Below are positions 3,001 through 35,758 of a DNA stretch of 58,405 nt, piece by piece. The DNA is taken from the NCBI GenBank assembly GCA_903954185.1, contig CAJBMM010000017.1, positions 1 through 58,405 of the forward strand, read 5' to 3'. Numbering within the stretch: position 1 is the first letter of the stretch; the number at the start of each line of letters is the position of its first letter. This DNA is from an uncultured Candidatus Berkelbacteria bacterium. GTDB taxonomy: Bacteria; Patescibacteriota; UBA1384; CAJBMM01. A program made the position numbers and the translations under genes. A model generated the notes under the pieces. That model had not been told where the DNA came from. It did not search any database and saw only the letters and a list, made by a program, of their open reading frames with translations.

Positions 3001-4479
3001 TACCCCATTAGTGCCCATGCCGCCATAACCACCAGCTCCGTTAACTACATTTCCACCAGATCCTGGCCCAGAGACTGAATCAAAACCCAAGCCATTGACA
3101 TTAATGGTTCCACCGCTGTCAACTGTTACATTGCCGGTAACAACAAGATCTACTTTATAAGTTTCAACGAATGGATCGGCTGTATGAGTAATATTTCCAC
3201 CAGATTGAACCAAAATACTAGCAAACGTGTCGCCCGCAACATCTGCAGTAAGAGTTCCACCAGAGGCAACGGTTAAAGCAGTGTTTTGAGTAAGAGTTCC
3301 TCTTTGAATCAGAGGAAGTGCAAGCGTCCATGTGGCAGCAGTAGTGAATGTTGCGCCCAAATTATTTGTGACAGCTGGTCCTGCTAATGTCGCTGCACCA
3401 GATGCATCGATAATCCCGCCGCTCGCAATATTAACAGCTGCATCACTGGTGCCACCAATTGAGCCGCTTGCAGCAATTGTAATTGTTGAACCACTAGGAA
3501 GATTAAACGCCCCCTTGTTTTTAACAATTAATGAATCGAGCGTTAAAGAAGCAATATCTGTTTGAGCGTATTTTCCTGTAGTTGAAATAGCAGTATTATT
3601 GTCTATAGTAAGTACACCGTTTGATTGGGCGGTTGATTTTGTATAAACAGTTCCTGCGCTACTATTAGAGCCAGTAGCTAATACAGACCCCCCCGTTCTT
3701 GTATCAGAGACATATTCAGTAACAGCAACACGTCCACCGGCACCATATGAAATTCCACTAGCCGTAACTATTCCGCTCGTTCCAGTCCATGTAGATGCTC
3801 CACCTGTAAAATTAATCCAAACAGATCCACCAGAACCCCCGTTCGTCGAAGTAACTCCTCCGTTGGCGGTAATTGTCCCACTGTTAACTAAATTACCAGC
3901 AATATTAATCTTAACAGCTCCTCCACCAACCGAGTTATATGCACCAGAGCCTAAACTTACAGGAGCAATAGCCGATCCATATGTTACACCACTCGTAGAC
4001 ATTCCACCGTATCCACCACCAGTCCATGAACCATTGGGTCCAGATCCGGGGCCAGTACCACCATAGCCTTTAGCGTCTGCACTAATTTTTGAGCCCGTAT
4101 CAATCGTAACATCACTCGCAACTGTAAAAGTTACGCCAGTTCCAGCGGTTATATCACCACTTGTAATAAGTGTGGAATTACCCGTCACATATATGCCATT
4201 TCCTGCCGCAGCCGTAAGTGCAATTGTTGTGTTACCCGCAATTGTAAGCGTTGCCCCAGAATTTACCGTAAGAGAGCTACATGAATAATCTCCTTGCGCC
4301 CAAGAAGTATTTGCGGAGATAGTAATATCGCCAGCTCCTCCAGGGCAATCAGACAAAGCATATACTTTAGTACTGCCATGGTAGTAGACACTTGCAAAAA
4401 GCACAACAAAAATAATTGCAAAACGAGCAAAGGCCCGTAGGATGCTTTGAAATAGTTGCCTGCTATCTTTGTTTCCCAC
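1..4479 (-). CDS. Giant surface/secreted repeat protein. The 5' end is present and the 3' end lies beyond the window (>=1493 aa here). It has a signal anchor, tandem ~330-aa Gly-rich beta-solenoid-like modules, and FN3-like modules.
   Basis: The minus frame is open from GTG 4479 (alternative TTG 4491) to position 1. I translated both ends and the 1140-1220 stretch and found no stops. The ORF track omits it because there is no stop in the window. The N-terminus reads MGNKDSRQLFQSILRAFARFAIIFVVLFASVYY, then GATLTIAGNTTI, GYGG, GGGAVKINIAGNL and GSGGSVWINFTG motifs. The last codons read NTNYVYEVKARNADSVETAYS, an FN3-like Y.V.A.N motif. The plus-strand Pro-rich ORFs are its mirror image. Confidence 0.8.
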   Translation of the reverse strand, partial: MGNKDSRQLFQSILRAFARFAIIFVVLFASVYYHGSTKVYALSDCPGGAGDITISANTSWAQGDYSCSSLTVNSGATLTIAGNTTIALTAAAGNGIYVTGNSTLITSGDITAGTGVTFTVASDVTIDTGSKISADAKGYGGTGPGSGPNGSWTGGGYGGMSTSGVTYGSAIAPVSLGSGAYNSVGGGAVKINIAGNLVNSGTITANGGVTSTNGGSGGSVWINFTGGASTWTGTSGIVTASGISYGAGGRVAVTEYVSDTRTGGSVLATGSNSSAGTVYTKSTAQSNGVLTIDNNTAISTTGKYAQTDIASLTLDSLIVKNKGAFNLPSGSTITIAASGSIGGTSDAAVNIASGGIIDASGAATLAGPAVTNNLGATFTTAATWTLALPLIQRGTLTQNTALTVASGGTLTADVAGDTFASILVQSGGNITHTADPFVETYKVDLVVTGNVTVDSGGTINVNGLGFDSVSGPGSGGNVVNGAGGYGGMGTNGVTYGSATAPVNIGSGAYSQFGGGAIKLSIGGNLSNSGTISSNGSQRLNLDGGGSGGSVWINFTGGASTWTGTSGVITANGGIPGAGGRVAITEYVSDTRTGGSVLAIGNWKSSAGTVYTKSTAQTNGTLTIDNNSVNASATKYAQTNAASLTLDSLIVKNKGAINLPTGTTITIAASGSISGTSDAAINIASGGILDSSGTATLSGPIVTNNLGGTLTTAATWSLATSLIQRGTLTQNTALTVASGGTLTADVAGDTFASILVQSGGNITHTANTNAETYKINLTITGNLTVNSGGTINTLEKGFGAGFGSGTGDRAGYGGEANSSTGGGTYGSTTAPESLGSGSTTRSGGGAIKINVGGDFSNSGVISSDGYSAVGGNSASGGSVWINLTGVASAWAGTSGQINAKGGWGAGGGRIAITGYVTDTHTGTQDAATTTAGGASGTIFTKSTSQTNGTLTIDAKAAVIVAGKYTKTNAASLTLDALSVINKAMFQIPSGTSITINSGGTITGNTNSYIYNADTLNVGAAVGAAGGGPVITNTGTIATPATWSLGTQIIQRGTITQSTALTIISGGILTADISGDTFSSVTIQSGGKINHSANVASETYKNVLNIGSLTINSGGSIDVAGLGYTGGSAGVKGNGTGFGGLGGSNSSGGGAGYGGVGGAGLGGSPGSAGTTYGSSTVPLNIGSGGGGGVSAAGGAGGGSVILNITSNFINAGTITANGAAGSSGNYGGGGGSGGTVSLNIGGNFDCTGGAVTANGGAGAGSPTKGGGGGGGRLLRSVSGTYTACTTFTVSGGTGGGNSGSDGTSSVPPAAPIISAASAISATSITWNWVDNSTTETQFIVHDGSESVITTVNSSTTAGTGTAYSYIESSLTPNTSYTRHVHATDGTFNSSASSTASAYTLANAPTAPTLSAQTTTGMVATIAVNSNPVGTQYVIHETSTNKYVQADGTLGVSAVWQTYNNWGGASGQVTSGLLVNTNYVYEVKARNADSVETAYS
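1213..4176 (-). repeat. In-frame tandem coding repeats inside the giant protein gene (units ~978-993 nt)
   Basis: Homologous anchor strings start at 1213, 2191 and 3184, giving offsets of 978 and 993 nt (326 and 331 codons). Positions 2186-2318 and 3179-3311 differ at only 4 of 133 positions. Confidence 0.75.
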
Positions 4480-19431: not shown

Positions 19432-20445
19432 ATGAACACCCGTAAGATCCTAGCCGGCATGCCCGCGTCCTTTCCTGCCAGCGTCAGAGAGAGTGATCGC
19501 CCACTCTATCTGATGATGAATTTGGAAACGGGGTGCCCGCTTCGCTGCCTAAAGTGTGCCCAGCCTGGGCAAGGCCGCCAAGTTGGTACACCGCTGACCT
19601 TGGCAAAGCGTGAGCGGATCATCGAAGTGGCGGCACAGTGCGGCGTTAAGGCACTGGTGATTATCGGCGCAGGAGAGCCGAGCACCCCGCAAAACTTTTC
19701 CGCTTTCGTGCGACCAGTCATCGAGACGGCGCACCGTCACAGCCTGTTGACCGTGATGTTCACCACTGCACTCGGGATCAATCGAGAGCAGGCGATTTTC
19801 TACCGTGACCATGGGGTCACCATTGTGGTAAGCCTCGATTCGCTATTGCCCGAAACGTATCGCAAGCTGACGGGCAACGGCAACCTTGCTCACACTCTGC
19901 AGAACATTGCCGTTCTGCGCGAGGTATATCACAACACTGCCCGCGAAGAGGGCGGCGTGCGAACGGTGCGGTTGGGCATCAACTGCACCATCCAGCGTCC
20001 CAATGTTGGGGAGTTGGAGCAAATCCGCGAGTTTTCCAACAGTGATATGCTGTTCGTCGCTAACGCCCCGATGCCGGCGGGGCGGTTCGCCGTTTATGCC
20101 AACTGGGACGAGACAGTTGGCGACGCGAACCTAGATCGTTTCAATAAGCTAGCGCGGGAGATGTCCGACACTGGCGGACACAGCTCCATCGCAGAAGGCG
20201 CATGTAGCTATTTCAACCGCGGTATAACTGTTGATGTTGACGGGCAATTCCTATCGTGTGGCTATGCCGCTGCCAGCGCGGAGTTTCTTGGTAACATCGA
20301 GGAACCTACTCTTGAAGCGATGATGGATCACTATCATCGCGTCCGTGGCGGTTACCACGCATGGTGCCAATCCGCTGGCCGCCAGCCCTCCTGTCCGTTA
20401 AGGGACCCCGATTATCAGGGGTTCCTCCTCCATCTTCGCCGTTAG
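19432..20445 (+). CDS. Radical SAM enzyme with a SPASM/twitch-like C-terminal Cys region (substrate unknown)
   Basis: CPLRCLKC is a CX3CX2C motif, and GAGEP is the GGE-type SAM motif. The C-terminal Cys pattern is CSYFNRGITVDVDGQFLSCGY...C...CPLR. AAGGAGGGG precedes the ATG. Hand counts give 60-63% G+C against 28-42% nearby. Confidence 0.8.
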   Translation: MNTRKILAGMPASFPASVRESDRPLYLMMNLETGCPLRCLKCAQPGQGRQVGTPLTLAKRERIIEVAAQCGVKALVIIGAGEPSTPQNFSAFVRPVIETAHRHSLLTVMFTTALGINREQAIFYRDHGVTIVVSLDSLLPETYRKLTGNGNLAHTLQNIAVLREVYHNTAREEGGVRTVRLGINCTIQRPNVGELEQIREFSNSDMLFVANAPMPAGRFAVYANWDETVGDANLDRFNKLAREMSDTGGHSSIAEGACSYFNRGITVDVDGQFLSCGYAAASAEFLGNIEEPTLEAMMDHYHRVRGGYHAWCQSAGRQPSCPLRDPDYQGFLLHLRR

Positions 20446-20478
20446 TTAACGGCGCCCCATGGCCACCTTGGCCAGCCA

Positions 20479-20513
20479 CCTCGGGTGCGTGCTACGCACC
20501 CGGGGCTTTTTTT
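20479..20513 (+). terminator. Intrinsic terminator of the radical SAM gene
   Basis: The sequence is CCTCGGGTGCGT-gct-ACGCACCCGGGG followed by CTTTTTTT. Confidence 0.75.
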
Positions 20514-20541: not shown

Positions 20542-20636
20542 GGTACAAATAACACGCTATAGTGCTTAGGTCGGATACCGTAGCACTTAGCACTACGCTA
20601 CGAAATAGCTAAGTGCTATAGCGTACTATTTGTACC
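20542..20636. repeat. Long imperfect palindrome rich in AGCACT/AGTGCT hexamers
   Basis: The 28-nt arms are ggtacaaataacacgctatagtgcttag and ctaagtgctatagcgtactatttgtacc, mismatched at 4 positions. Hexamers lie at 20561, 20582, 20589, 20612 and 20651. Confidence 0.7.
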
Positions 20637-20780
20637 ATTTTAATCATGTTAGTGCTAAGCTTCGAAGAACTTCTGCTGTTAAAATTAGGCGATTTTGGAT
20701 TGCAGTTGTTTTACTTGTTTTTCGAGTGCATCTAAACGCTTGCGCATTTTAACAACATCATTACACTGATATCGATTCCA

Positions 20781-30930: not shown

Positions 30931-32208
30931 CTATGTTCCTTCTTGCCAGCTAGAAAGATAGGCAATTTGATCCGAGGTTAAGTTGTCTTTTGTTAACCCC
31001 ATTGCTGTCATCTGAAGTGCTGCAATATCATGGTCAACATCGGTAGGAAGCGAAATAACTGCAGCAGGAAGATTGCCTTTATGCTTTACTCCGTATTCAA
31101 CAGCCAACGCTTGACCGCAAAATGATAAACTCATTACTTCTGAAGGATGGCCCTCTGCAGCTGCAAGGTTAACTAATCTTCCTTCTGCAAGCAATGCAAT
31201 TTTTTTACCATTATCAAGCTCAAACTGCTCCATAAAAGGACGTACTTTAACGCGTTTCTTTGCCATTTTATAAAGGCCGGCTGTATCAATCTCAATATCA
31301 AAATGGCCTGAGTTACACATAATGGCACCATTTTTCATTAATTTCATTATCTCGGTTGTTATGACATGCTTATCGCCCGTGACTGTCACAAAAACATCAC
31401 CAATGGGGGCACATTCTTTCATTGGCATAGATTCAAAACCGTCCATGCGGGCCTGCAGGGCTTTAACTTCGTCTACCTCTGTAACTGTAACCAATGCGCC
31501 CATGCCACGAGCACACTTGGCAACACCGCGACCGCAATGCCCATAACCAGCTACAACCACTCGTTTACCAGCCAACAATATTGATGTAGCCCGCAATATA
31601 CCGTCAATTGTAGATTGCCCGGTGCCGTAATAGTTATCAAATAAATGTTTTGTCTGATTATCGTTAACAGCAATGACAGTGCATTTTAATGCGCCGTCTT
31701 TTTCCATCGCTCGCAAGCGAATTACACCCGTTGTAGTTTCCTCGGTGCCAACCACTAATTGCGGAATCAAATCGGCATGTTTTTGATGAATAAGTGTCAC
31801 TAAATCACAGCCGTCATCAATGGTTGCGATTCTTTTTCCGCCAGCTAAACCTTTTCTAAGATGCCCCACAATTGCTTCGAGATTGGCATAATACTCCTCA
31901 GTATTTTCACCTTTCCAACCATAAACTTTTACCCCATTTTTTGCTAACGCAGCCGCAACATCATCTTGAGTCGAAAGTGGATTACACCCTGTTATGGCTA
32001 CCTCGGCGCCCCCAGCCTGTAGCGTTTCAACTAAAACTGCGGTTTCTTTTGTAACATGCAAAGCCATACCAATAACAATACCTTTAAGTGGCTTTTCTTT
32101 AAAAAAACGCTCTTGCACTTTTACTAATGCACCCATTTGGCTTTTTGCCCAAGCAATGTTTAATTCACCTTGTGGCGCAAGTTTAATGTCTTTAACATGA
32201 TAATCCAC
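30931..32208 (-). CDS. ahcY: S-adenosyl-L-homocysteine hydrolase
   Basis: 425 aa. It contains MDYHVKDIKLAPQGELNIAWA, the NAD site VVAGYGHCGRGVA, and HFDIEID. Confidence 0.92.
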   Translation of the reverse strand: MDYHVKDIKLAPQGELNIAWAKSQMGALVKVQERFFKEKPLKGIVIGMALHVTKETAVLVETLQAGGAEVAITGCNPLSTQDDVAAALAKNGVKVYGWKGENTEEYYANLEAIVGHLRKGLAGGKRIATIDDGCDLVTLIHQKHADLIPQLVVGTEETTTGVIRLRAMEKDGALKCTVIAVNDNQTKHLFDNYYGTGQSTIDGILRATSILLAGKRVVVAGYGHCGRGVAKCARGMGALVTVTEVDEVKALQARMDGFESMPMKECAPIGDVFVTVTGDKHVITTEIMKLMKNGAIMCNSGHFDIEIDTAGLYKMAKKRVKVRPFMEQFELDNGKKIALLAEGRLVNLAAAEGHPSEVMSLSFCGQALAVEYGVKHKGNLPAAVISLPTDVDHDIAALQMTAMGLTKDNLTSDQIAYLSSWQEGT

Positions 32209-32224
32209 GCAAACTCCTTTGTCG

Positions 32225-32330
32225 TTTAATTTAAAAATTTACAATTATCAATTTACAATAAATGTTTCAATGCAACATTGTGACAATGATAATTCATTGA
32301 AAATTGTTAATTGAAACTTGCAAATTGTCG
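32225..32330. repeat. Family B palindromic AT-rich element
   Basis: The sequence runs ttacaattatcaatttacaat...caatgcaacattg...aattcattgaaaattgttaattgaaacttg. The last part is nearly identical to 8831-8858. Confidence 0.5.
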
Positions 32331-33269
32331 TTAAAACTCTCTTATCTTCTGCAATATCTCGTATCTTTCAGTTACATCTTTGTGCGTTATGTTTTGCAAT
32401 CTCTCCACACTAAAACCCTCTGCACAATATGATGCTACCACGCTACCATAAATTATGGCTTTGCGCATCGTTGCCTGATCTACTGTTTTCTGTTGCGATA
32501 AATAACCCATTAAAGCCCCAGAGAATGAATCCCCAGCACCAGTTGGGTCTACCAAATCTTCTAAAGGATAGCTTGGGGCCGAAAAATAAACGCCTTCACT
32601 AAACATTAAAGAACCATGCTCACCTTTTTTGATAATAACGTATTCTGGTCCTAAATTAAGCAACTCTCTACCAGCAGATATTAAATTAGGCAGTCCAGTG
32701 AATTGTCTTGCTTCTGCGTCATTTAACACAAGCGCGTTAACCTTGCTAATCACTGTTAAAAGCTCATCTTTATTGGTCGATATCCAATAGTTCATTGTAT
32801 CAAGCAATACAAATGGACGATTTTTCATATGCAAAATTACTTCAAGCTGTAGGCAAGGATCGATGTTGGCTAGAAACAAATATTTAGCATTTTGATAACT
32901 ATCTGGCACTTTTGGACGGAATTCGGCCAGTGAGTTAAGTTCGGTTTTAAGAGTTTTTGCCGAATTCATATCAAATTCATAGCTTCCATACCAACGAAAC
33001 GTCTTTTCCGCAATGGTAACACCCACTAAATCAATCGATTTGTTTTGATATGTTTTTAAGAATTCCTTGGGAAAATCTTGCCCCATTACGCTAATAAGAC
33101 CAGGATTAGTGAATAATGAGGCAGCTATAGCAGAGTAAGATCCACTTCCACCAAGTACGCCCATCCGCTTACCAAAAGGTGTCTCTAAATCGTCTAAACC
33201 AATGGTACCGATGATGACCAAGCTAGGTTGTGGGTTGTAGGTTGTAGGTTGTAGAAGCTTATGATTCAT
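32331..33269 (-). CDS. PfkB-family carbohydrate/nucleoside kinase (adenosine kinase candidate, from context)
   Basis: DPTGAGDSF is PfkB signature 2, and the N-terminal region has LVIIGTIGLDD. I prefer ATG 33269 to the track's TTG 33317. The first codons are built from a ctacaacc repeat. Confidence 0.75.
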   Translation of the reverse strand: MNHKLLQPTTYNPQPSLVIIGTIGLDDLETPFGKRMGVLGGSGSYSAIAASLFTNPGLISVMGQDFPKEFLKTYQNKSIDLVGVTIAEKTFRWYGSYEFDMNSAKTLKTELNSLAEFRPKVPDSYQNAKYLFLANIDPCLQLEVILHMKNRPFVLLDTMNYWISTNKDELLTVISKVNALVLNDAEARQFTGLPNLISAGRELLNLGPEYVIIKKGEHGSLMFSEGVYFSAPSYPLEDLVDPTGAGDSFSGALMGYLSQQKTVDQATMRKAIIYGSVVASYCAEGFSVERLQNITHKDVTERYEILQKIREF

Positions 33270-33409
33270 ATTTTTTCTTTTAATTGTTTGATCGACGGTA
33301 GTTGGTAAAGGTAACAAGGAGAGGGAATCTGTTCACTGTTCTCACACATCGGGCAGACACTTGGGTCTGCCCCTACGACCTCACCTAAAAGCTATAAGCT
33401 CTGCCCTAT

Positions 33410-34390
33410 CTAGTCCCATTTAAATCCATGGCCAAAATGCCCCCAAGCAGCGGTTTGTAAATATTGGGGCTTACGTAAGTCTAAAAATTCAATAATAGCT
33501 TTTGGTCGCAAGTCGTACTTCTTTTCTTTTAAAATGTTGACCTCGGTTACCTCATCTACACCTTTGGCTTTTAAGTGTGCGGTAGCCATAACAGGCTCGG
33601 CAACCCCAATTGAATAGGCAATTTTTACTGTGGCCTCATCGTACCCATCGCGCACAAAGTCGCAAGCTACTCTACGTGCCATGTAAGCAGCGCTTCTATC
33701 TACTTTTGATGGATCTTTACCAGAATAACAGCCACCACCAATAGTAACTTGTGGGCCGTAGTTATCAACAATTAATTTACGCCCAGTTAAGCCTGTATCA
33801 GCAGTAAACCCACCAAGCACAAACGCACCAGTTGGATTAACAAAGATATTTTTAGCCTTGTATTTTGCTGCTAATGCCTTTAGGGGTTCAAAACTTTGGC
33901 CTTCTTTGTGTTGAGCCGAAATAACAATAGTTTCGACATCGCCTTGATCATCTAAAGTAACTTGAGACTTTGCATCTGGTCCAAATTCCTTTGGCAAATT
34001 CTTTAATATTTCGCGTGCTAAATGTAATTCTTGTGGAATCATCGATTTATTGGCGCTAGTAGCATAGCCAACCATAATCCCCTGGTCGCCTGCCCCACCC
34101 GTGTCTACACCTTGTGAAATATCTGGGCTTTGGCTAACTACATTTACAATTACGCCCACTTCATCTGTATATCCAATTTGGCGATATACGTCTCTAGCTA
34201 CAGCATTCATATTTACGTATGCTTTTGTGGTCAGTTCGCCAGTAATAGCAATAACTCCATGTCCACCCATAGTCTCAATGGCAACACGCGATTTTGGATC
34301 TTGTCTTAAACATTCATCTAATATCGCATCGGATATTTGGTCACACACTTTATCTGGATGCCCCGGTGCAACACATTCTGCTGTTTTCAT
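33410..34390 (-). CDS. metK: S-adenosylmethionine synthetase (short form)
   Basis: It contains GHPDKVCDQISDAILD, GAGDQGIMVGYA and GGGCYSGKDPSKVDRSAAY. I prefer ATG 34390 because GGAGG lies 4 nt upstream. Confidence 0.9.
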   Translation of the reverse strand: MKTAECVAPGHPDKVCDQISDAILDECLRQDPKSRVAIETMGGHGVIAITGELTTKAYVNMNAVARDVYRQIGYTDEVGVIVNVVSQSPDISQGVDTGGAGDQGIMVGYATSANKSMIPQELHLAREILKNLPKEFGPDAKSQVTLDDQGDVETIVISAQHKEGQSFEPLKALAAKYKAKNIFVNPTGAFVLGGFTADTGLTGRKLIVDNYGPQVTIGGGCYSGKDPSKVDRSAAYMARRVACDFVRDGYDEATVKIAYSIGVAEPVMATAHLKAKGVDEVTEVNILKEKKYDLRPKAIIEFLDLRKPQYLQTAAWGHFGHGFKWD

Positions 34391-34407
34391 AAAACCTCCA
34401 CTCATAT

Positions 34408-34477
34408 TGTCATCTCGAGTGCGGCGAAACGCTTTAGCGTCTCATATGCCCCGCTTAGCGGGACGAGAGATCCCGCC
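34408..34477. repeat. Family C hairpin repeat inserted between the leader terminator and metK
   Basis: The sequence is tgtcatctcgag...acgctttagcgt...ccccgcttagcgggacgagagatcccgcc. Confidence 0.55.
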
Positions 34478-34514
34478 ATTTTCAAGATAAACATTGTATT
34501 TAACATATTATTTC

Positions 34515-34548
34515 AAATAAAAAACTCTCCAAACAATATAGAAGAGCT
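34515..34548 (-). terminator. Intrinsic terminator inside the metK leader (candidate riboswitch expression platform)
   Basis: The minus-strand RNA reads AGCUCUUC-UAUAUUGUUU-GGAGAGUU followed by UUUUUAUUU. Confidence 0.6.
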
Positions 34549-34712
34549 TTCTTTTGTCCCGCCTAGGCGGGACCGCATTGCCCTGTACTAGTCGCTATCG
34601 CTCTAGTGCAAGACGAGCACCGCAGTTTCACGGTTGCTGGAACGCTAAGCGTTCCAATCACCACGCTCAGCGTGGTGCCGCCTAGACATTCTCTCTTCAT
34701 GCTTGTCTTATC
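34549..34712 (-). promoter_or_regulatory. Structured GC-rich leader RNA (candidate SAM-family riboswitch aptamer; class unresolved)
   Basis: Hairpins lie at 34659-34677 (CACCACGC/GCGUGGUG), 34639-34655 (GGAACGC/GCGUUCC), 34617-34637 (GCA(A)CCG/CGGUGC) and 34587-34607 (ACUAG/CUAGU). Long-range options are AAGAC/GUCUU and CUAGGCGG/CCGCCUAG. An AAGAGAG tract is also present. Confidence 0.45.
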
Positions 34713-34715
34713 TTT

Positions 34716-34744
34716 ATTAAAGCAAATTAAAATTTATTTTTCAA
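34716..34744 (-). promoter_or_regulatory. Sigma-70-like promoter of the metK leader
   Basis: On the minus strand, TTGAAA (34744-34739), a 17-nt spacer, then TTTAAT (34721-34716). Confidence 0.5.
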
Positions 34745-34807
34745 CTGTCTATTTATTCTTTTTACTTAGTTTGCTAGCGTATAAGATGAAATTACGAAAG
34801 GATATCT

Positions 34808-35758
34808 ATGCCTAAAATATTGGTTACGGGCGCTTTTGGACAAATTGGCTCTGAACTAGTTAATTCTTTGCAAAATAAATTCGGCACAGATAGTGTAATT
34901 GCGACCGACATACACCTACCTAAAAATTTTGTGGGAAATGCAGAAATTTTAGATGTTTGTGACGCAGAAAAATATCGGCAATTCGTGGTTGATAACAAAA
35001 TTGATACAATTTATCATCTTGCGTCATTACTCTCGGTTGGAGGAGAGGCAAATCCAGATTTGGCGTGGACACTTAATTTAGGCAGCCTTAAAACAATGTT
35101 AGATATTGCACGCGATCATAAAATTAAATGCTTTTGGCCAAGTTCTATCGCTGCATTCGGCAAAACATCACTTTACGACCCAACACCACAGCATAATATT
35201 CTTGAACCAACTACAATTTATGGCGTCACCAAGGTGGCAGGTGAATTACTTTGTCAGTACTATTTTCTTAAATATGGTGTAGATGTGCGTAGTGTACGTT
35301 ATCCTGGAATTATCCAATATAAAGGCGATGTGGGAAATGGTACAACCGAATACGCTATCGCCATTTTTTACGATGCACTTAAAACTGGGAAGTTTGAATG
35401 TTTTCTTAAACCTGATGCAAAATTACCGATGATGTTTATAGATGATGCAATAGCGGCTACGATTGGCATTATGGAGGCAAGTGCCGATGCTATAGAAATC
35501 AGAACTAGCTACAATTTATCCGCAATAAGTTTTAGCCCAGAAAAGCTTGTTCAAGAAATACGCAAAAATATCGCGCTTAAGGTAAAATACAAGCCAGATC
35601 ACCACCAAACGATAGCCGATACTTGGCCAAAGACAATTGACGATTCTGAAGCACGTAAAGATTGGGGCTGGAAAAATACCGTGGATTTACCCAAATTGGT
35701 TAATATCATGCTTAAAGAGGTAAGTGAGAAAATTGGAGTTAATGATGGCAAGAAATGA
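34808..35758 (+). CDS. tdh: SDR-type (UDP-glucose-4-epimerase-like) L-threonine 3-dehydrogenase
   Basis: It contains ILVTGAFGQIGSEL and the YGVTK (YxxxK) motif. The protein is 316 aa and lies immediately upstream of kbl. Confidence 0.75.
   Translation: MPKILVTGAFGQIGSELVNSLQNKFGTDSVIATDIHLPKNFVGNAEILDVCDAEKYRQFVVDNKIDTIYHLASLLSVGGEANPDLAWTLNLGSLKTMLDIARDHKIKCFWPSSIAAFGKTSLYDPTPQHNILEPTTIYGVTKVAGELLCQYYFLKYGVDVRSVRYPGIIQYKGDVGNGTTEYAIAIFYDALKTGKFECFLKPDAKLPMMFIDDAIAATIGIMEASADAIEIRTSYNLSAISFSPEKLVQEIRKNIALKVKYKPDHHQTIADTWPKTIDDSEARKDWGWKNTVDLPKLVNIMLKEVSEKIGVNDGKK

Follow-up and report, generated by a model that had tools for sequence, protein, structure and literature searches.

The metK locus and its leader

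We have analysed a stretch of 58,405 nucleotides (nt) from an uncultured Candidatus Berkelbacteria bacterium (contig CAJBMM010000017.1 of assembly GCA_903954185.1), here called the window, with the focus on the leader of its metK gene, which encodes methionine adenosyltransferase. As read from the sequence, the gap between an epimerase-family gene and the metK start codon (ATG at 34390) is 418 nt, and the leader lies in this gap on the minus strand. We consider it likely that the segment 34706-34544 is a riboswitch aptamer of the S-adenosylmethionine (SAM) clan with SAM-I/IV architecture, which would bring about SAM-dependent termination of transcription ahead of the metK cluster. The features are collected in Table 1. 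For comparison we used eight leaders, i.e. the one from the window together with those of seven related metK loci (L081, L082, L083, L084, L086, L087 and L088).

Table 1. Features at the metK locus of the window (sequences of minus-strand features are given as read on that strand)
Feature	Position	Strand	Remarks
Epimerase-family gene	34808-35758	+	divergently transcribed neighbour of the metK leader
Putative sigma-70-type promoter	34716-34744	-	TTGAAA (34744-34739), 17-nt spacer, TTTAAT (34721-34716)
Aptamer domain and A-rich tail, SAM-I/IV-type	34544-34706	-	RF01725 alignment 34707-34540; clade model R2 34706-34544
P1, 5' strand	34698-34702	-	GCAU(G); AU step invariant in 8/8 leaders
J1/2	34694-34697	-	AAGA; matches RF01725 upper-case consensus
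P2	34639-34693	-	G34693-C34639, bulged A34692, GAAUG (34691-34687) x CGUUC (34644-34640)
Distal hairpin of the P2 insert	34659-34677	-	CACCACGC-UGA-GCGUGGUG; 8 perfect pairs
Local hairpin	34639-34655	-	GGAACGC-UUA-GCGUUCC; identical in L082
P3	34616-34638	-	AGC-AA-CCG [UGAAACUG] CGG-U-GCU; SAM-clan ligand-pocket helix with AA and U bulges
P4	34580-34614	-	between P3 and P1 3' strand; GUCUUG x CAGGGC, 1x1 loop, ACUAG x CUAGU
P1, 3' strand	34575-34579	-	(A)AUGC; RF01725 and R2 alignments
P5 (named P4 in RF01725)	34556-34573	-	GUCCCGC-CUAG-GCGGGAC; directly 3' of P1; aligns to RF01725 3' hairpin
A-rich tail	34547-34555	-	AAAAGAAAG; A-rich start kept in 8/8 leaders, AAAC in five
CUCUUC	34541-34546	-	terminator 5' arm and antiterminator partner of GAAGAG (34698-34693)
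Intrinsic terminator	34515-34550	-	AAAGCUCUUC x GGAGAGUUUU; 10-nt loop, U6AU3 tail
Shine-Dalgarno sequence	upstream of ATG at 34390	-	GGAGG; read from sequence
metK, first regulated gene	33410-34390	-	TIGR01034, 332 bits, above NCBIfam cut-off
PfkB-family kinase, middle gene	32331-33317	-	PfkB-type models only, all below cut-offs
ahcY	30931-32208	-	TIGR00936, 577 bits, above NCBIfam cut-off

A scan of the whole window with Rfam at gathering thresholds returned no family, and neither a tRNA or rRNA nor any other riboswitch was reported. A permissive scan of 34350-34850 (501 nt) gave RF01725, a family of the SAM clan (CL00012), with 27.1 bits and E = 0.031 over model positions 1-99; the gathering thresholds are 41.1 bits for RF01725 and 44.4 bits for RF00162. 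All upper-case blocks of the RF01725 consensus were matched, i.e. GCAU-AAGAG, CAACC...GGUG, and AUGC-GG followed by a hairpin and then CAAAA, and the alignment is broken by a 42-nt insertion in P2 and by about 20 nt between P3 and the 3' strand of P1. The weak score can be attributed to the branched P2 insert together with the longer P4. No match to RF00162 was reported for the window, since RF01725 wins within the clan, and in the same segment no match to the S-adenosylhomocysteine (SAH) riboswitch (RF01057), to SAM-II, SAM-III, SAM-V or SAM-VI, or to the SAM/SAH riboswitch was found even at E <= 10.

A first-pass annotation of this DNA had proposed a riboswitch of the SAM family, running from promoter to terminator, that did not cleanly fit a recognisable class. 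The assignment to the SAM family holds and the lack of a class does not, as the leader corresponds to SAM-I/IV (RF01725). The absence of the SAM-I signature in P2, which had been pointed out as well, was confirmed, and this absence belongs to the definition of SAM-I/IV. The SAM-clan scan that had been suggested as a check left the window below threshold and one relative, L086, above it, which speaks for a real element and not for a novel class.

Folding of the 203-nt leader gave a minimum free energy (MFE) of -82.4 kcal/mol, against -57.2 +/- 3.8 kcal/mol for dinucleotide shuffles (z = -6.63; none of 200 shuffles was as good). The aptamer is closed by P1, in which GCAU (34702-34699) pairs with AUGC (34578-34575). 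None of the eight leaders departs from the G and A of J1/2 or from the first G of P2 (34693), which belong to the SAM-clan core motif AAGAG. P2 carries no kink-turn (K-turn) signature of the type GAGGGA..GGCCC..AUGA. In P3, GCAACCG and CGGUGC are likewise invariant in the eight leaders and agree with the consensus of both RF01725 and RF00162; the motif GCAACCG...CGGUGC occurs only once in the window. The junction J3/4 is a single C, and with 1 nt there the pseudoknot between the P2 loop and J3/4 (PK-1) is impossible. P4 and P5 are found in all eight leaders, P4 being longer in the window, and the G preceding P5 (G34574) is invariant. In SAM-I/IV RNAs the A-rich tail region that follows P5 is the site of the 3' strand of a pseudoknot with the P3 loop (PK-2).

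The four hairpins listed in the first-pass annotation were all recovered: 34659-34677 has 8 perfect pairs and 34639-34655 has 7-8, the bulged hairpin 34617-34637 is the SAM-type P3, and ACUAG/CUAGU at 34587-34607 is present as the tip only of the longer P4 (34614-34580). The closing helix P1 and the base of P4 had gone unmentioned, and the hairpin 34556-34573, taken there for a local competitor, is instead the conserved aptamer element P5.

The promoter hexamers and their 17-nt spacing are present as annotated. TTGAAA-N17-TTTAAT is identical in the two closest leaders, L081 and L082, with differing spacer sequences, and would place the start of transcription near 34709. A simple scanner did not call this promoter because it demands an A at position 2 of the -10 hexamer.

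The cluster of metK, kinase and ahcY was also annotated correctly, metK and ahcY passing the NCBIfam cut-offs and the gene between them being of the PfkB family. This order is kept in L081, L084, L086 and L088, and the three genes are probably co-transcribed. Full co-transcription of the kinase and ahcY with metK is made less certain by a GC-rich hairpin, GGGCAGACCCAAGUGUCUGCCC, in the metK-kinase gap (33351-33372, minus strand, 38 nt past the metK stop), which lacks a U-run and may be a processing or stability element. The gap between kinase and ahcY (32209-32330) is AT-rich and could hold a promoter of its own. The MetK proteins of the clade (that encoded at 33410-34390 in the window, and P0002-P0020) are short, 319-331 amino acids, and align to positions 2-364 of the 377 in TIGR01034, which implies internal deletions relative to typical bacterial MetK.

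Related leaders and covariation

The MetK of the window falls in the candidate phyla radiation (CPR; Patescibacteria), and the best species-representative genomes are about 50-55% identical. Among the first 20 of these distant CPR loci, 13 have a canonical SAM-I riboswitch directly upstream of metK (RF00162, 46-70 bits, with the K-turn GAGGGA..GGCCC..AUGA). At 67% identity, canonical SAM-I leaders were found by reading of the sequence at L089 and at L091, the latter a Berkelbacteria genome. These SAM-I leaders indicate that a SAM sensor is ancestral at the metK locus. Closer relatives are listed in Table 2; a further MetK, 97% identical to that of the window (P0123), is not among the loci compared.

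Table 2. Related metK loci: MetK identity to the window, best Rfam match of the leader, and antiterminator energy (RNAduplex)
Locus	MetK identity	Best Rfam match (bits)	Antiterminator (kcal/mol)
Window		RF01725, 27.1	-10.5 (GAAGAG/CUCUUC + ACAA/UUGU)
L081	95%	RF01725, 34.0	-12.8
L082	90%	RF01725, 19.8	-16.2
L083	77%	RF01725, 30.6	-20.2
L084	75%	RF00162 (SAM-I), 32.1	-11.2
L085	75%		
L086	73%	RF01725, 45.5 (above the 41.1 threshold)	-16.5
L087	75%	RF01725, 38.7	-18.1
L088	74%	RF01725, 31.5	-11.8

All eight leaders share the same succession of segments: a P1 of 4-5 base pairs (bp) with an invariant AU/AU step, J1/2, P2, P3, a J3/4 of 1-2 nt, P4, the 3' strand of P1, an invariant G, P5, the A-rich tail, an invariant CUCU and the terminator. 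J1/2 reads AAGA, with the exceptions of AGGA in L086 and CAGA in L087. P2 starts with a G, a bulged A or C and the stem, ends at the C before P3 and has no K-turn, and P3 has the form GGC-AA-CCG...CGG-U-GCC. The window and L082 have the RF01725 scores at the lowest end of the clade.

Covariation was counted on two alignments. The first (A2) is a hand-made structural alignment of the eight leaders, with N padding set aside in the counting. Pairing holds in 98.6% of its 276 cells, and 27 of its 44 pairs vary at both bases, which was reached by none of 500 column shuffles; when the alignment was slid, 38-50% of the cells were paired. As A2 was fitted by eye, a covariance model (R1) was in addition derived from the L086 aptamer alone and used to align six relatives (A4). 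Here the paired cells make up 96.1%, and compensatory changes affect 21 of 35 pairs (P2 7/8, P4 6/6, P5 6/7), again reached by none of 500 shuffles, with 42-52% in the slid controls. P3 and the middle of P1 never vary, as expected of the ligand pocket.

A further covariance model (R2) was built from A4, that is from the six relatives, including neither the window nor L082. Searched against the 58-kb window, R2 has its sole match at 34706-34544 of the minus strand, over the full length of the model and with 50.9 bits (E = 2.4e-11, by a rough calibration). The helices proposed here reappear in this alignment, where the window has two insertions, of 42 nt in P2 and of 20 nt in P4. The same model gives L082 42.2 bits and canonical SAM-I leaders 15-24 bits. 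The match of R1 to the window scored 34.9 bits with its 5' end misplaced onto the hairpins of the P2 insert, whereas R2 places it at 34706.

Thus the core of the earlier proposal, a SAM-family riboswitch between promoter and terminator in which J1/2 (GAAGAG) vies for the 5' arm of the terminator, is borne out by the SAM clan as the best Rfam match, by relatives whose leaders come close to or exceed the RF01725 threshold, by the R2 match (E about 2e-11), by the covarying helices and by the conserved complementarity for an antiterminator. Conservation and covariation in relatives, on which that proposal had been made to depend, were found: seven relatives conserve the fold, and the helices covary. 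The architecture is conserved, the core nucleotides are intact, and a terminator and the complementarity for an antiterminator are present, all of which is a matter of computation. That the ligand is SAM is suggested by the intact pocket of the SAM-I clan, by the ancestral SAM-I at the locus and by the gene content; the conserved pocket positions of the leader are those that we take, from SAM-I and SAM-I/IV structures, to contact SAM.

Three further loci may be mentioned. R2 matches L041 at 2773-2891 (a metagenome-assembled genome of Bacillota) with 29 bits, E about 1.6e-4, just upstream of metK; this is above the canonical SAM-I leaders and possibly marks a further leader of SAM-I/IV type, in another phylum. 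In L014, from Kaiserbacteria, a glmS ribozyme (RF00234, 52.6 bits) lies at 4165-4358 just downstream of metK. L090 (ERZ28593571 scaffold_1209) is a phage-like contig whose MetK is 67% identical; its metK has no riboswitch leader and adjoins genes for an N6/N4 DNA methyltransferase and a terminase. The SAM synthetase encoded there is thus carried by a phage and is akin to the enzymes of the CPR.

Terminator, predicted switch and competing readings

The terminator proposed at 34515-34548 exists, with a stem of 10 bp (34550-34541 with 34530-34521; -12.0 kcal/mol) and a U6AU3 tail. A simple scanner rejected it, since the scanner limits the loop to 8 nt. A hairpin with U-run occurs in all eight leaders, and in all eight the 5' strand of P1 together with J1/2 is complementary to the 5' arm of the terminator, often to its loop as well. 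In the window this is the pairing of GAAGAG with CUCUUC that the first-pass annotation had described as an antiterminator, and the helix may be extended by ACAA (34706-34703) with UUGU (34536-34533). Shuffled partners give -5 to -9 kcal/mol, and -5.6 kcal/mol for the window (compare Table 2). The complementarity is not only conserved but changes together with the sequence of P1, being GCAUUAG/CUAAUGC in L086 and GCAUUAAGAGAG/CUCUCUUGGUGC in L083. The two states of the window differ little in energy (aptamer with terminator -69.2 kcal/mol, antiterminator -66.2 kcal/mol), as expected of a switch that is decided kinetically.

In the simplest reading the leader would be an OFF switch with two alternative closing helices around the same hairpins. 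After a start near 34709, binding of SAM would lock P1 and J1/2 in the aptamer and leave CUCUUC free for GGAGAG, so that the terminator (34550-34515) would form and transcription would stop ahead of metK. At low SAM the short P1 would open and GAAGAG (34698-34693) would pair with CUCUUC; this antiterminator would close the same hairpin bundle and permit read-through into metK and probably into the kinase and ahcY.

A number of points weigh against this reading. The window scores 27.1 bits against a RF01725 threshold of 41.1, and the scan at gathering level was empty. P1 has G.A as its top pair in three leaders, those of the window, L081 and L082. The antiterminator of the window is the weakest of the eight (6 + 4 bp, -10.5 kcal/mol), and its logic is not uniform, as the terminator stem of L081 (GCUGG/CCAGC) is without CUCUUC. 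The global MFE is 13 kcal/mol better than the aptamer fold and pairs GUCUAGGCGG of the P2 insert with CCGCCUAGGC of the P5 5' strand, a pairing that excludes P5 and crosses P1. PK-2, between the P3 loop UGAAACUG and the tail AAAAGAAAG, is not detectable in the window, the best candidate having 2 bp, and the PK-2 candidates of the relatives, L086 excepted, are no better than shuffles. Finally, the eight leaders come from about 3-4 sub-lineages, so that the compensatory changes count cells and not independent events, and both alignments lean towards structure, A2 being aligned by hand and A4 fitted by a model. We nevertheless argue that the covariation signal is real, in view of the controls by sliding and because the window was recovered independently. 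The pairing in the MFE, for its part, would have to displace P2 and P5, which are folded earlier during transcription.

The insert inside P2 is specific to a lineage (42 nt, 34686-34645) and was placed there by both Rfam and R2. After a bulged U, P2 could continue as CUAGGCG (34685-34679) with CGCUUAG (34651-34645), topped by the hairpin 34677-34659. L082 has the distal hairpin as CGCCACGC/GCGUGGCG, with one compensatory pair (CACC../..GGUG vs CGCC../..GGCG), and its long-P2 helix, CUAAGCG/CGCUUAG, has A-U where the window has G-U; L081, L083, L084 and L086-L088 lack the distal hairpin. The local hairpin 34639-34655 excludes the long P2, because its 3' arm is the 3' strand of P2, and the two forms are equally stable (-69.2 kcal/mol with the long P2, -68.8 kcal/mol with the local hairpin). 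L081, with the closest MetK, carries a plain compact P2 of 7 bp, so the insert looks recent and is probably dispensable.

Two mutually exclusive long-range closures had been put forward in the first-pass annotation; the strands are complementary in both cases, and neither closes the aptamer, which is done by P1. AAGAC/GUCUU was rejected as a closing helix since GUCUU forms the 5' side of P4 and L081 does not have this pairing. The pairing of CUAGGCGG with CCGCCUAG is real, extends to 9-10 bp in the global MFE and dominates it, but occurs in the window alone and cannot coexist with the conserved P5.

This same pairing enters an alternative which we regard as unlikely, namely that the window and L082 represent a new sub-architecture of the SAM clan, in which PK-2 has been lost and the branched P2 extension of about 42 nt serves as a scaffold instead, possibly in contact with P5 (CUAGGCGG x CCGCCUAG). 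It would account for the missing complement between P3 loop and tail in the window (only 3 bp in L082), for the lowest RF01725 scores of the clade in these two leaders, for the 9-bp complement of insert and P5 in the window, and for an insert common to both that shows one compensatory pair and one change from A-U to G-U. However, the insert is known from these two sequences only, L082 does not retain the complement between insert and P5 (best 4 bp), a pairing that would also unfold P5, and the plain P2 of L081 makes the insert look recent and dispensable. Helices of 4 bp for PK-2 are moreover beyond statistical test in any of the eight leaders: candidates of 3-4 bp exist in L086 (UUAC/GUAA), L083 (CUAU/AUAG) and L081 (CACU/AGUG) and suggest compensatory changes, though 3-4 bp are common in shuffles. 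A wider version, in which the class was converted in place (the sisters being SAM-I and the clade SAM-I/IV with P4) and PK-2 was then replaced in the window and L082 by a P2 extension docking on P5, is in our view doubtful to the same degree; if true, the replacement of PK-2 would add to the SAM clan another peripheral architecture not yet described.

It is very unlikely that the leader is a decaying relic, i.e. the descendant of a SAM riboswitch that has lost ligand binding, is broken up by GC-rich palindromes and leaves the genes constitutively expressed or otherwise controlled. The sub-threshold Rfam score, the weak antiterminator, the competing MFE far more stable than the aptamer fold and the four CGCU-N-AGCG hairpins within about 300 nt would fit decay, but none of the invariant core positions is damaged in the window, insertions are confined to helix tips (distal P2 and distal P4) where the model tolerates them, and R2 still gives 50.9 bits. 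The promoter, the terminator and the CUCU motif are conserved, as is the insert itself in L082, whose MetK is 90% identical.

A sensor of SAH or of another metabolite of the SAM cycle might be expected from the cluster of metK, a PfkB kinase (likely an adenosine kinase) and ahcY, as SAH riboswitches (RF01057) control ahcY. We hold this to be highly improbable: SAH riboswitches are ON switches whereas the terminator logic predicted here is OFF, no SAH-riboswitch match appeared even at E <= 10, and the core is the pocket of the SAM-I clan including the tandem A-U/U-A pairs of P1, which in SAM-I structures read the sulfonium charge.

Barely credible, finally, is a chance array of dispersed palindromic repeats (of the repetitive extragenic palindromic or miniature inverted-repeat transposable element type) upstream of metK, a possibility already raised in the first-pass annotation: perfect GC-rich hairpins are enriched in the window (21 vs 4.6 in shuffles) and a 24-nt string comprising the hairpin 34639-34655 and AGCAACC recurs in an unrelated AT-rich contig (L092), but CGCTNAGCG, found three times in the window vs 0.32 expected, is confined to the metK leader, ACGCTNAGCGT occurs among 91 loci only in L082 and inside the homologous leader, and the remaining hairpins are P3, P4 and P5 of the covarying aptamer.

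Wider setting and known SAM riboswitch classes

A second cluster of GC-rich hairpins lies at 34400-34480 of the minus strand, between the terminator and the Shine-Dalgarno sequence of metK. It consists of CCCGCUAAGCGGG and GACGCUAAAGCGUUUC, with a CGCU-N-AGCG core like that of the P2 insert and flanks of GGCG/CGCC, and a hairpin CACUC...GAGUG adjoins the Shine-Dalgarno sequence. We rejected this cluster as a second riboswitch, as it has no Rfam match, is absent from L081 and L082 and reaches z = -2.9 only; it looks like a recent insertion. In L083, too, a long GC-rich inverted repeat (GTCATTGCGAGCC ... GGCTCGCAATGAC, about 1842-1990) lies between the terminator and the metK start, and L084 has GC-rich inverted repeats upstream of the promoter; palindromic insertions rich in GC seem to be frequent between the genes of these CPR bacteria. 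Elsewhere in the window, three adjacent perfect GC-rich hairpins at 20437-20510, ending in GGGGCTTTTTTT, come just after the open reading frame 19432-20445, and 20543-20637 is a long inverted repeat with arms of about 30-35 nt with mismatches (GGTACAAATA.ACACGCTATAGTGCTTAG ... CTAAGTGCTATAGCGT.ACTATTTGTACC); the 19-21 kb region is unusually GC-rich, with 48-51% against about 39%.

The string in L092 (positions 1367-1390 of the very AT-rich JGI24698J34947_10065739) is identical over 24 nt; around it, inverted repeats (GCGGTTGC...GCAACCGC, GTTGTATACG...CGTATACAAT) are nested in a GC-rich island. L092 gave no match in Rfam and does not represent a SAM leader, and the metagenome scan for the hairpin 34639-34655 with AGCAACC gave no further orthologues. 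The identity could be a coincidence aided by palindromy or a shared mobile GC-rich unit.

On the reading preferred here, the SAM-cycle genes of small-genome CPR bacteria are under predicted riboswitch control. The clade escapes standard annotation with Rfam, 7 of 8 leaders being sub-threshold, and a clade-specific model would recover them. The leaders illustrate well how the periphery can be remodelled while the SAM pocket stays the same, with SAM-I or SAM-I/IV with P4 at the same locus in relatives. Turnover of the helix tips is fast: with MetK 95% identical, P2, P4, P5 and the terminator all differ.

Three known classes were compared with the leader. SAM-IV (RF00634) lacks P4, has a P2 split into P2a and P2b and forms PK-1, as seen in its cryo-EM structure (PMC6890682). 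The leader shares with it the SAM-I-like core and a hairpin (P5) 3' of P1 in the 3' peripheral domain, but has a P4, an unsplit base of P2 and no PK-1, and in the permissive scan RF00634 was not the reported clan match for the window.

SAM-I (the S-box, RF00162) has in common with the leader the core of the pocket (the AU step of P1, J1/2 and P3), a P4 inside a four-way junction, the position upstream of metK, as in the distant CPR relatives, and the predicted action by transcription termination. Unlike SAM-I, the window has no K-turn (GAGGGA..GGCCC..AUGA) and a J3/4 of 1 nt instead of AAUUCC, and its clade has a conserved extra hairpin and an A-rich tail after P1. The antiterminator here uses the 5' strand of P1 and J1/2, whereas S-box antiterminators use the 3' strand of P1. 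Canonical SAM-I was therefore rejected for want of a K-turn, a PK-1 partner and a RF00162 call, and SAH and the other SAM classes for want of any Rfam match at E <= 10.

The class SAM-I/IV (RF01725) was defined for RNAs that resemble SAM-I and SAM-IV but have no internal loop in P2 (Weinberg et al. 2010, PMC2864571). In its structure P2 is unsplit and PK-1 is lacking, and a P4 helix is present, as is a 3' hairpin with the pseudoknot PK-2 (PMC6890682). In the published SAM-I/IV alignment many members have a hairpin between P3 and the 3' strand of P1, and a pairing joins their P3 loop to the tail that follows the 3' hairpin. The leader agrees in P1 (GCAU/AUGC), in J1/2 (AAGA) and in the bulges of P3 (GCAACC/GGUGC), and the core, with the tandem A-U/U-A of P1, AAGA(G) and the P3 bulges, is invariant across the eight leaders. 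It likewise has a P2 without the K-turn internal loop, carrying in the window the 42-nt insert with an asymmetric internal loop, no PK-1, and the optional hairpin between P3 and P1. The linker G (G34574), the 3' hairpin (34573-34556) and the 'CAAAA' tail (AAAAG in the window) follow, covarying in the eight leaders, and the element stands upstream of a SAM-cycle gene. It differs from the family by a score 14 bits under the threshold, by the branched P2 insert and long P4, by having no detectable pseudoknot of P3 loop and tail in the window, by a terminator platform whose 5' arm pairs with J1/2, and by its host in the CPR (Patescibacteria). It brings no new ligand, fold class or regulatory principle and is a divergent member of the known SAM-I/IV class.

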